IMG/VR virus record: IMGVR_UViG_3300005805_000408
Span: 1 to 26,353 of that record
Strand: one strand, 5' to 3'
DNA length: 26,353 nucleotides
Source: a virus
Lineage: Duplodnaviria > Caudoviricetes
The position numbers were made by a program, and so were the translations under genes. Each line of letters opens with the position of its first letter. Positions within the stretch are counted from its first letter, which is position 1. Under the pieces are notes generated by a model. It had not been told where the DNA came from. It made no database searches and saw only the letters and a list, made by a program, of their open reading frames with translations. Positions 5,774 through 10,519 of this stretch are shown here, piece after piece.

Positions 5774-5792
5774 AGTCTAACATTGAATTAGA
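5774..5792 (-). promoter_or_regulatory. extended -10 promoter (TGT-TAGACT) with palindrome TCTAAC-ATTGA-ATTAGA (5776-5792)
   Basis: Fourth copy of the motif, between a terminator and the oxygenase start. Confidence 0.65.
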
Positions 5793-5802
5793 TTTTCAAA
5801 CG

Positions 5803-5826
5803 AAAAAAATGGGCCCGGCCCGGCCC
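5803..5826 (-). terminator. intrinsic terminator
   Basis: Minus strand reads GGGCC-loop-GGCCC then A-T7. Confidence 0.6.
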
Positions 5827-5869
5827 TTATTGACTACTTACTGTATCCTTATTTCTTGTCCTTGCATCT

Positions 5870-6062
5870 CTTTTGGTGGGCAGACCCAGCCCTCCTGGAG
5901 GAGGATGAGCCTTCACATGTGATCTCTCCCGGAGCCGCATGACCCGACAGCCGTTCGATGCATGGGCGCTATCTTCGCCACCCATTCCCCTATCTCAGCA
6001 TCTTTCCCGTAGTAGGGGTGTCCCCGCAACGCTACTGCCAGTGCGCGTCCATTGCGGCGGGT
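5870..6062 (-). ncRNA. candidate structured non-coding RNA or origin region (tandem hairpins)
   Basis: Successive stems CCGCAAT/GTTGCGG, CCCCTA/TAGGGG, ATGGGTG/CGCCCAT, CCTCC/GGAGG; no credible ORF. Confidence 0.4.
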
Positions 6063-6075
6063 AAGCGGCTACAAA

Positions 6076-6180
6076 GCAAAAAACCCATTGGGGAACGAGC
6101 TTTGGGCTTGGTTGCCGCACACAAGTCTGCAGTGACAGGGTCTTGTAGCTTTGACGAAGCCCGCTCCCCAATGGGTTTGC
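6076..6180 (-). ncRNA. C4/CI-like antisense RNA (long basal stem plus two loop-presenting hairpins)
   Basis: ~22-bp stem 6157-6178/6081-6102 ending in a U-tract. Loops TCACTG (6130-6135) and AACCAA (6108-6113) are complementary to leader sites 6190-6195 and 6210-6217. Confidence 0.65.
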
Positions 6181-6229
6181 GGTTGCGTTTCACTGAACTA
6201 CGACGGGTTACCAAGCCGTCGATGCACGG

Positions 6230-6260
6230 ATTATACGGTCAATCCGCAAACCCGTGTCAA
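6230..6260 (-). promoter_or_regulatory. sigma70-type promoter TTGACA-N19-TATAAT
   Basis: Both hexamers are perfect consensus; spacer is 19 bp; the -35 overlaps the primase stop codon. Confidence 0.6.
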
Positions 6261-7126
6261 GACATCGCAAGAGATGCCATACGGCACTTCATGATTTTCC
6301 CAACAACCGCAAACAGGCCCCTGCTCTTGTGCAGGTCGTTGGCGTCCCAACCCACCTCATCGGCCATCGTCCAGGGCAAGCCAGTCTGCTCCGCGGCCTT
6401 CTGCCCCGTCTGGCTTTCGTCGTTATCCGCAAACACAAATCGCTGCCCAGGGATCTGATCGGCCACCTGCACCAGGTTTGACGCCGAAAAACACACCACC
6501 ACTGATGCTTTCATACCGCAGCTACGCAGGGCATTTCTCACGCTCAAGCCGGTCGCATAGCCCTCCACCAGCCAGCATTCGGGTAATTCCCTGTTGCCCA
6601 TGAACAACACAGCATTTTTGGCCCTCATGCCGAGCATCATCTTTTTATCGTACTTGCGCTGCTCCATGTCCCACCAGATCGCCTGATAGCCCTGAATGCG
6701 ATTAGTAACGACATTTCGCATTGGGATCAGCAGCCTGTCCTCGAGCACCAGGCCCTTTTCCTCAGGAAAGCCTTTGATCTCAAGGTAGGCATGCTCGGTC
6801 AGTTTGGCCTGTTTCAGGGTCTCCAGCGCCTTTTGAGCGGCCTGCTCATACTGATTGTCCTGCCTCTGCGCCGCCAAGGCCCTTTTTTGGGCCCAGGAGC
6901 GCTTTTCTTCGTCAGTCCAGGGCTTTGCCTTGGGGTCTTCGTACCAGACCGTCCTGGCCTCTCCAGACCAGTCAAACACCCAGCCACGCTGGCCGTCCCA
7001 GAAATAGGCCCCGTTGCCCGACTTTGGCTTACCCACAGTGCCGCAACGCTTGATCCGATCAGATGGGTACAGGCGGCTGGGGTCAATCTCCACTCCATGG
7101 GCTCGAGCGAAATCAATGAAACTCAT
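6257..7126 (-). CDS. TOPRIM-domain DNA primase (P4-alpha/TraC-like primase domain)
   Basis: LVEGYATGLS and FVFADND TOPRIM motifs, HAYLEIKG, LLIPMRN. Start re-called to MSFIDF at 7126 (ATGA overlap with helicase stop). Confidence 0.9.
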   Translation of the reverse strand: MSFIDFARAHGVEIDPSRLYPSDRIKRCGTVGKPKSGNGAYFWDGQRGWVFDWSGEARTVWYEDPKAKPWTDEEKRSWAQKRALAAQRQDNQYEQAAQKALETLKQAKLTEHAYLEIKGFPEEKGLVLEDRLLIPMRNVVTNRIQGYQAIWWDMEQRKYDKKMMLGMRAKNAVLFMGNRELPECWLVEGYATGLSVRNALRSCGMKASVVVCFSASNLVQVADQIPGQRFVFADNDESQTGQKAAEQTGLPWTMADEVGWDANDLHKSRGLFAVVGKIMKCRMASLAMS

Positions 7127-9486: not shown

Positions 9487-9693
9487 TTACTTGTCGCCAA
9501 AGATATCGGGTCGCAGTTCTTTGGCTGGTACGAGGCCCTGTGTGGCCTTCTCAATCTTCTTTGCTAGTACCGCTGATGGCCTTCTGGACTTGCTGATCAG
9601 CAGTCCCAGCCATGTCTGGGTGATCCCTAGGTACTCTGCCATTTCTTTCTTCGCTCCATACGGTTCATCTTTGAAGTATTGTTTGAGGTTCAT
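9487..9693 (-). CDS. Cro/YdaS-like helix-turn-helix regulator
   Basis: 68 aa; MAEYLGITQTWL..L HTH; AKKIEKATQG.V..ELRPDIF C-terminal signature. Confidence 0.85.
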   Translation of the reverse strand: MNLKQYFKDEPYGAKKEMAEYLGITQTWLGLLISKSRRPSAVLAKKIEKATQGLVPAKELRPDIFGDK

Positions 9694-9712
9694 TGCACTC
9701 CTTTCTTAGGGC

Positions 9713-9782
9713 GGCCTACTCGCTGCGTCTGGTGGCGTGTCCGCTAACCCTGCATCCAGAGCACCAGCATCCGCTTTCGGCC
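9713..9782 (-). ncRNA. structured leader RNA with loop-E (GAA/AGUA) motif
   Basis: GGCC-GAAA-GC..UGC-UGGUG...CACCA..GCA-GC-GAGUA-GGCC irregular hairpin between the predicted TSS and the RBS of the Cro-like gene. Confidence 0.55.
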
Positions 9783-9790
9783 TTGACGCA

Positions 9791-9822
9791 ATGCTACCAC
9801 ACTTCTAATTCCATGTTATAGT
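9791..9822. promoter_or_regulatory. divergent extended -10 promoters sharing the palindrome TCTAAT-TCCAT-GTTATA (9804-9820)
   Basis: Plus strand TGT-TATAGT (9814-9822); minus strand TGG-TAGCAT (9791-9799); located where gene orientation switches. Confidence 0.6.
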
Positions 9823-9880
9823 CTTCTCACGGCCATGTGGTCGGGTTCGTGTCCTACGGGACGTTTTACAGGAGAAGACC

Positions 9881-10519
9881 GTGAGTTTTTACGTTGAAGA
9901 CAAGGGTGGCAATTTTGAGCGCTGCCCCTCTGGTATGCATCTGGCCCGATGCTACCGGATCGTCGATCTGGGCACCCAAAAGTCAGAGTACATGGGGCAG
10001 GTCAAGTACCTGCACAAGCTCATGATCGGCTGGGAAATCCATGGCACTGACGACAAGGGCAATCCCTTGAAGATGATGGACGGTCGCCCGTTTGCGATCT
10101 TCAAGAACTACACCCTCTCATGGTCTGAGAAGGCCAATCTGCGGCTTGATCTACAGTCCTGGCGCGGCAAACCCTTTACGCAGGAAGAGATGCGCCGGTT
10201 CGATCTGAAGAATGTGCTTGGTGCTTGGTGCATGATCAATGTGATTGAACGCGCCGGCCAGGATGGCAAGATGTACACCAATGTCAATGGTGTCACTCCA
10301 GTGCCTGCCATCATCAAGCAAAACGGTCTGCCCGCAGCCGTCAACAAGAACGAGTTGTTCAACATCTCTGAGCCAGACATGGCGATGTTCAACTCCTTCA
10401 GCGACCACCTCAAGAAAAAGATTGAGGCATCACCCGAGTGGCAAAAACGCACTCAATCTGAGCCAGCATCACAAGAGCCCGAGTACCTGGGCGAGCCGGC
10501 AGATGACATCCCTTTCTGA
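9881..10519 (+). CDS. SSB-like phage replication protein (NGO0469-like family)
   Basis: AGGAG RBS with GTG start; G.HLARCYRIVDLGTQ motif; acidic tail ending DDIPF as in SSBs. Confidence 0.8.
   Translation: MSFYVEDKGGNFERCPSGMHLARCYRIVDLGTQKSEYMGQVKYLHKLMIGWEIHGTDDKGNPLKMMDGRPFAIFKNYTLSWSEKANLRLDLQSWRGKPFTQEEMRRFDLKNVLGAWCMINVIERAGQDGKMYTNVNGVTPVPAIIKQNGLPAAVNKNELFNISEPDMAMFNSFSDHLKKKIEASPEWQKRTQSEPASQEPEYLGEPADDIPF

Follow-up and report, generated by a model that had tools for sequence, protein, structure and literature searches.

Downstream of a primase gene, the minus strand of the window carries a real, covarying switch of the C4/CI type, which lies outside the Rfam C4 family and is tied to a structured non-coding module, not to the primase. 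The window, i.e. the whole stretch of 26,353 nucleotides analysed here, is a 26.4-kb virus record with an estimated completeness of ~47%. We consider it probable that the switch acts as an antisense attenuator and put forward, as a tentative model with slightly less than even chances, that this attenuator gates a transcription-primed origin of replication.

On the minus strand, a Cro-like gene is followed by a ParB-like gene, an SF2 helicase, a Toprim primase, ~500 non-coding bases and a 2OG-Fe(II) oxygenase gene. Further upstream, at 9487-9881, the Cro-like gene and divergent early genes are separated by only ~190 nt, and no cI gene is present. Re-reading the sequence, we found all motif positions given by an earlier note on this DNA to be correct on the minus strand. 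The features are, in the direction of transcription:

9452-8643, minus strand: ParB-like gene, in the same replication block as the primase
8646-7123, minus strand: SF2 helicase, in the same replication block as the primase
6257..7126, minus strand: Toprim primase gene (PF13362; PHROG DNA primase), upstream of the switch
6255..6260, minus strand: -35 hexamer TTGACA, overlapping the primase stop codon
6230..6235, minus strand: -10 hexamer TATAAT, after a 19-nt spacer
6201..6221, minus strand: leader hairpin, whose loop holds site 1, TTGGT (6214-6210)
6190..6195, minus strand: site 2 (CAGTGA), variable specificity word located in the linker
6157..6178, minus strand: 5' arm of the basal stem, 22 pairs, from folding and compensatory changes
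6118..6149, minus strand: inner hairpin, whose loop TCACTG (6135-6130) complements site 2
6105..6116, minus strand: small hairpin GGC-AACCAA-GCC, whose loop complements site 1
6081..6102, minus strand: 3' arm of the basal stem, from folding and compensatory changes
6073..6083, minus strand: U-tract behind the basal stem, predicted terminator tail
6060..6064, minus strand: TTACC, following the U-tract, a short sequence that again complements the leader loop
5875..6059, minus strand: class A module, in which a conserved 3' extension follows Betaproteobacteria-1 (6059-5942); candidate transcription-primed origin with its function taken from context
5803..5826, minus strand: intrinsic-terminator-like hairpin with T7, closing a ~420-nt unit
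5774..5782, minus strand: TGTTAGACT, extended -10-like motif preceding the next operon

The TTGACA/TATAAT promoter motif is present as described. Its spacer measures 19 nt, which is why it was overlooked by a consensus scan allowing 16-18 nt. Among 70 close relatives, 55 have spacers of 18-19 nt and 58 have TTGACA with a -10 at 16-19 nt spacing, and a -10-like hexamer precedes 75 of 76 elements of the window's type (type I, see below). With its consensus hexamers and conserved long spacer of 18-19 nt, the promoter (6230-6260) may be sensitive to supercoiling. A promoter scan found no antisense promoter on the opposite strand. The proposed basal stem of ~22 bp with two inner hairpins is borne out by 22 pairs between 6178-6157 and 6102-6081, and the window element folds much better than shuffled sequences (z -6.9, 0/200). 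In an alignment of 65 elements, pairing holds in 94.8% of the cells, and two-sided changes are seen at 23 of the 44 pairs; all six stem pairs of the leader hairpin vary on both sides and are 100% paired in the 65 sequences.

A pattern scan of IMG/VR gave 91 loci; together with the primase loci, 103 matches were reduced to 76 distinct type I elements, one truncated locus being left out. Covariation between loops and leader sites in related phages, which the earlier note had proposed as a check, was confirmed for the variable loop, which matches its own linker site over at least 6 bp in 69/76 cognate combinations compared with 212/5700 (3.7%) non-cognate ones. The best matches comprise 43 words, 40 of them at least 5 nt long; matches are interrupted in two loci (L098, L170) and lost in a third (L019). 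This last locus (L019:4060-4221) is the sole unmatched type I element, its module is also short and unusual, and it may be a recombinant or a decayed switch. Among 20 pairs with backbones at least 95% identical, 16 have different words, and in a second tally 53 of 60 close pairs do, as would be expected of a specificity code that is read in trans. Taken alone, the double complementarity in the window is modestly unlikely (43/5000 shuffled leaders); its reality follows from the covariation in relatives, not from the statistics of the window. Since the leader loop and the linker covary with the downstream loops, a role of the leader as mere protection of the 5' end was rejected.

Of the two loop-leader pairings described, the 6-bp one at site 2 stands, but the 8-bp one at site 1 gives way to a constant core of 4-5 bp. 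The TGGT/ACCA core is invariant in 65/65 aligned elements, while the four bases before it read GGCT in just 24/65, the only elements in which 8 bp can form; the 8-bp match in the window is partly incidental. The loop side of this core belonged to the search pattern but the leader side did not, and the leader side was found in all 76 elements. As the GGC-AACCAA-GCC hairpin was itself part of the pattern, its invariance is partly built in.

Every covariation result would also fit pairing in cis only, as a kissing interaction or pseudoknot inside one RNA and without trans regulation or exclusion, and a site 1 that is just a 4-5 bp constant core agrees with this. We nevertheless regard it as improbable, as the word changes far faster than the backbone, three different architectures occupy the slot (see below), and the known analogues C4 and CI act in trans (sections of PMC5320573 and PMC4825925).

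The claimed likeness to C4 and CI was borne out as a matter of logic, but not of family membership. In direct comparison with the P1 and P4 records, leader sites are complementary to two RNA segments. As in P1/P7 C4 (AF234172), the leader contains a first site in a hairpin loop and a second site, both complementary to the downstream RNA in antiparallel order, with the complementary segments unpaired and the RNA closed by a basal stem. Site 1 is the positional equivalent of P1 a1 and P4 seqA, and site 2 that of P1 b1; in P1/P7 C4 one site carries the specificity (sections of PMC5320573). Unlike C4, the switch here comes without a2/b2 and icd-ant genes, lacks the first tetraloop hairpin, holds the partner of site 1 in a small hairpin loop, and ends its 22-pair stem in a U-tract instead of a CCA-like end; moreover, its leader abuts the RNA and its output is non-coding. 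Of the Rfam models that had been suggested for checking the assignment, C4 and c4-a1b1 do not recognise it. RF01695 (C4) gave no match at E<=10 (cut-off 45 bits), the controls P1 C4 and P4 CI scoring 68.8 and 74.9 bits, and RF03163 (c4-a1b1) gave none at the leader, the control P1 leader scoring 51 bits. RF02944 (c4-2) matched neither the window nor four relatives, in a search in which no positive control matched. While RF01695 also matches P4 CI, the P4 leader is matched by isrK (RF01394).

The absence of a second downstream target, another claim of the note, was upheld among the type I relatives, where direct repeats of the cognate word within 500 nt downstream occur near chance level (5/69 against 9.5%); the other three word matches in the window lie on the non-message strand of genes. 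Likewise, no icd/ant-type ORF is found: there is no conserved frame, and three short ORFs of the window have no Pfam match. It is the lack of a second target and of such an ORF, together with the non-coding module that follows, that sets this switch apart from the known C4/CI kind. No description of the cassette was found in the literature covered, a search that stops short of most subscription papers and of the supplement of Weinberg 2017 (Betaproteobacteria-1, c4-2).

The placement behind the primase, which had been pointed out as unusual, is true for the window but is not a defining trait, as a primase lies within 1.4 kb upstream of only 15/76 type I elements, a count that includes some elements with short flanks. 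In seven loci (L084, L087, L095, L121, L128, L135, L149) the cassette is seen behind the gene for the terminase large subunit, outside the replication block. Conversely, of 91 primase loci, 80 were kept, and in 65 of the 70 closest the profile models detect a switch following the primase; of the remaining five, four have switches seen by eye and one locus ends early. Among the ten most distant primase loci, no switch was found behind the primase (0/10).

Most switches behind primases belong to a second type (type II) with the fold of P4 CI, in which one unpaired segment matches the leader loop over at least 7 bp in 34/41 compared with 12.7%. Some of these loci share the P4 word GTGAGAA (compared with record X51522), and the CI fold (X51522) of this type, in the same slot of close relatives, is the clearest likeness to P4. 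P4 CI acts as a termination factor for replication genes, so that control at transcription termination upstream of replication functions is a further parallel (sections of PMC4825925), proposed here from folds. Unlike P4, type II has neither a seqC-like repeat (5/38 downstream repeats of the target word against 11% by chance) nor a kil ORF, RF01695 gives no match on type II genomes, and the switch is followed by a non-coding module where P4 gates protein genes. In a third type (L196:2056-2231, L197, L204 and 35 more loci), the leader loop reads GTGGCA and the second match is variable, with 9-12 bp (at least 9 bp in 30/38 compared with 56/1406); three type III loci scanned gave no Rfam match. 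The short stretch past the U-tract that again complements the leader loop follows the type of the switch, with TACY in 55/76 type I elements and TTCC in 20/27 type II elements with a GGAA loop compared with 4/76 of type I, although the energy signal is modest (14/41 in the top tenth).

The region behind the switch is indeed non-coding, as the earlier note had stated, but it holds a structured module that the note overlooked. Rfam Betaproteobacteria-1 (RF02932), which Rfam types as an sRNA, matches at 6059-5942 with 106.7 bits (cut-off 49.4), and the conserved block of the window runs ~65 nt past the model. The U-tract is followed by conserved blocks of 200-300 nt; 110 such sequences were sorted into 14 classes with several members each, leaving 10 singletons. 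The modules are swappable, with at least 14 interchangeable classes: switch types and module classes assort freely, class A standing behind four type I and 13 type II switches, and primases that are 98.6-99.3% identical carry different switches and modules. At least 13 further structured classes exist besides class A (e.g. in L011, L008, L057, L086, L095, L110 and L001), and several classes share 5' sub-blocks and look mosaic. In the loci scanned, modules other than A matched neither the C4 clan nor any other non-tRNA Rfam family.

A peptide output was rejected, as neither an ATG in the 3' arm nor any of the short ORFs at 5827-6214 shows conservation. Alignments of five module classes contain frame-breaking indels that are mostly not multiples of 3 (class A: 15/76), and the class A alignment shows compensatory pairs. 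Module and next gene are separated in the window by a hairpin resembling a terminator and by a conserved promoter-like motif; a motif like TGTTAGACT occurs in 36/48 loci, with a T5+ run just before it in 25/36. The conserved CTAAT..TGTTAGACT stretch (5774-5790, minus strand) looks promoter-like without a consensus -35 and is possibly activator-dependent.

The transcribed strand of the modules is G-skewed in 104/110, and triple G-runs number 41 in sense and 2 in antisense compared with 13.3 in shuffled sequences; this skew also follows from G-U pairs, and the 110 modules are not independent samples. G skew and G-runs, which favour R-loops (section of PMC4083084), count in support of an origin. 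Outside the phages, modules B, C and D gave no match in PLSDB, and module A gave one partial, remnant-like match on a Burkholderia megaplasmid without a switch, which counts against an origin. RF02932 was found in one of 151 genomes of the family, directly behind a primase. A loose-pattern genome scan for prophage copies of type I, covering 14 of 64 parts, gave 120 loci and no genuine element, and model R1 found nothing in 151 Burkholderiales genomes, in a search that included no positive control.

In the proposed mechanism, the attenuator would decide whether transcription runs on into the structured module. On a fresh transcript, the leader would pair with both loops before the 3' arm of the basal stem exists, the stem would be blocked and the U-tract read through. 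Read-through should be favoured because, once the leader is paired, the 3' strand, tethered to the polymerase, would have to be wound about twice through a closed loop to close the 22 pairs. In equilibrium folding, the leader is paired with both loops at a length of 125 nt, and the basal stem wins at 150 nt. Transcripts that close the stem would instead end at the U-tract, yielding an RNA of ~105-150 nt with both loops free. This short RNA would then bind new leaders in trans, whether these belong to its own phage or to an incoming one that shares the word, and promote further termination. RNA that has read through the module would form a primer or an R-loop and start DNA replication. The switch may stand in for the cI of temperate relatives, providing both copy-number feedback and word-specific exclusion; in those relatives, cI would have the same effect through repression of the operon leading into the module.

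RNA sequencing runs provide only contigs of relatives, without strand or transcript ends. In four lake runs, possibly from one campaign, a single contig spans 6078-6184, beginning 15-52 nt before the stem, which is at most a weak hint. Contigs of a relative reach 123-255 nt past the stem, which speaks weakly against the view that the U-tract is a near-constitutive terminator, the short RNA a stand-alone exclusion factor, and the module an element acting at the DNA level without read-through, such as a single-strand hairpin origin or a primase signal. Such an arrangement would agree with the completed basal stem being by far the most stable fold, with the module lying behind the primase in temperate relatives, and with the method of Weinberg 2017, which also finds single-stranded DNA structures (section of PMC5737381). 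The sole target found, however, is the element's own leader, which leaves the short RNA with nothing to switch off unless read-through matters, and the nearly identical primases with different modules argue against recognition by the primase. We hold the DNA-level view to be quite unlikely.

As to what the attenuator controls, the suggested link to replication finds indirect support in gene context. Lambdoid O genes carry their origin, and the P1 record places oriL inside repL. In a second group of phages, the protein encoded behind some type I cassettes resembles phage initiators over their C-terminal part only (phrog_9474, 177-257 of 288). Among the best 80 of 570 relatives of this fragment, 59 distinct loci have enough flank, and the switch lies upstream of the fragment in 52 of these; in 65 loci from the same best 80, the open frame upstream of the fragment is at most 63 codons long. 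A cro-like gene precedes the cassette in the loci read, which corresponds to the place of the lambdoid O genes with their origin. As judged from these sequences, the cassette takes the position expected of the initiator half that bears the origin. The fold prediction for the fragment reached a pLDDT of 66, gave no Foldseek match and a best VIA Z of 5.5; an assignment as SPP1 G39P was rejected, with a Z of 4.2 that lies within noise. In the complete 34.7-kb genome G021, no primase, helicase, polymerase or full initiator was found among the 42 of 48 ORFs scanned.

One switch locus per genome was counted in 21/21 whole non-temperate records (19 by model, two by eye), a count that tests only for second copies since the records were chosen for having a switch. 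The neighbourhood varies among these genomes: G002 has an extra partial module match upstream, the module of G024 lies outside the module library used, G011-G013 have a relocated cassette with no known module left behind the primase, and in G019 and G020 the cassette is not adjacent to the initiator fragment. No tyrosine integrase and no S24 repressor was found in any of 28 switch-bearing records (23 of them at least 90% complete), and both are present in 4/4 temperate relatives tested; this contrast represents one lineage split (primases 47-54% identical) with only four temperate records. Three of the four temperate relatives have Betaproteobacteria-1 behind the primase without a switch, as do phage AP1 and L432.

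Other marks of an origin brought out no replication signature. Cumulative GC skew at the cassette is confounded by the nearby gene divergence, skew at four-fold sites does not track the orientation of the cassette, and DnaA boxes are not enriched in the modules (1/110 perfect compared with 1.5 shuffled).

The arrangement of a promoter followed by a structured non-coding transcript, known from ColE1 and Ceduovirus origins, is found here at the level of motifs and covariation. In ColE1, RNA I is made from the opposite strand, binds the 5' end of the structured pre-primer RNA II, and thereby controls replication and incompatibility. Similarly, an RNA binding the 5' end of a structured pre-primer would here control replication and define incompatibility; unlike ColE1, the regulator would come from the same transcript. 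In the lactococcal Ceduovirus phages c2, bIL67 and 923, replication by host functions only has been shown, and a promoter upstream of a second one gives a non-coding transcript; the origins are of three unrelated sequence types that are interchangeable, resembling the modules (sections of PMC7150918). These phages differ in having a host of another phylum, and the sections of PMC7150918 used here mention no antisense switch.

Alternatively, the attenuator may hold but the module may not be an origin and may be required for the expression of delayed-early or late genes, either as a regulatory leader, e.g. an antiterminator RNA of the put kind, or as a free non-coding RNA. Operons do begin with the cassette, which follows cro in small phages and the terminase in other phages. 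Genes downstream are what CI controls in P4 (sections of PMC4825925), and both the sRNA typing of Betaproteobacteria-1 and the intricate folds of the modules would suit such a role. Yet the downstream genes differ widely, and in the family of the window the module is followed by a terminator and a separate promoter-like motif. As the missing origin-bearing half of the initiator and the replication start of G021 would also stay unexplained, we rate a non-origin role as rather unlikely.

Taking the origin model one step further, a large group of freshwater phages may have given up the repressor as well as the origin-binding initiator in favour of a cassette made of RNA alone, in which a switch derived from C4/CI, with dozens of specificity words, gates interchangeable RNA-primed origins; we see this as possible, if somewhat doubtful. 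Such phages could be maintained as unintegrated replicons under copy control, shutting out only those rivals that share their word. If the model is true, a function would be found for one orphan Rfam motif and for over a dozen structured RNAs not listed so far, phages without detectable repressor or integrase would control their replication and exclude rivals by RNA alone, and the words would represent a natural set of ~40 candidate orthogonal switch codes. The cassette is smaller than 500 nt, so that each step can be tested on plasmids without phage culture.

Several insertions were observed around the cassette. Just upstream of the switch promoter, 1-6 tRNA genes are inserted in six loci (L029, L032, L035, L044, L082, L095). 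Two recurring small hairpin cassettes lie between primase and promoter in 13/80 and 10/80 loci (first group: L009, L010, L028, L030, L039, L044, L065-L068; second group: L023, L025, L032, L034, L040), and neither Rfam nor ARAGORN gave a match in those loci that were scanned. In L012 and L061, module B has an insertion of ~110 nt with its own closing stem, which looks tRNA-like by eye but is not called by ARAGORN. Directly behind the module, a gene for an HNH endonuclease (160-200 aa) is present in eight loci (L019, L104, L109, L115, L117, L133, L144, L145), and this endonuclease could drive the exchange of modules by homing.
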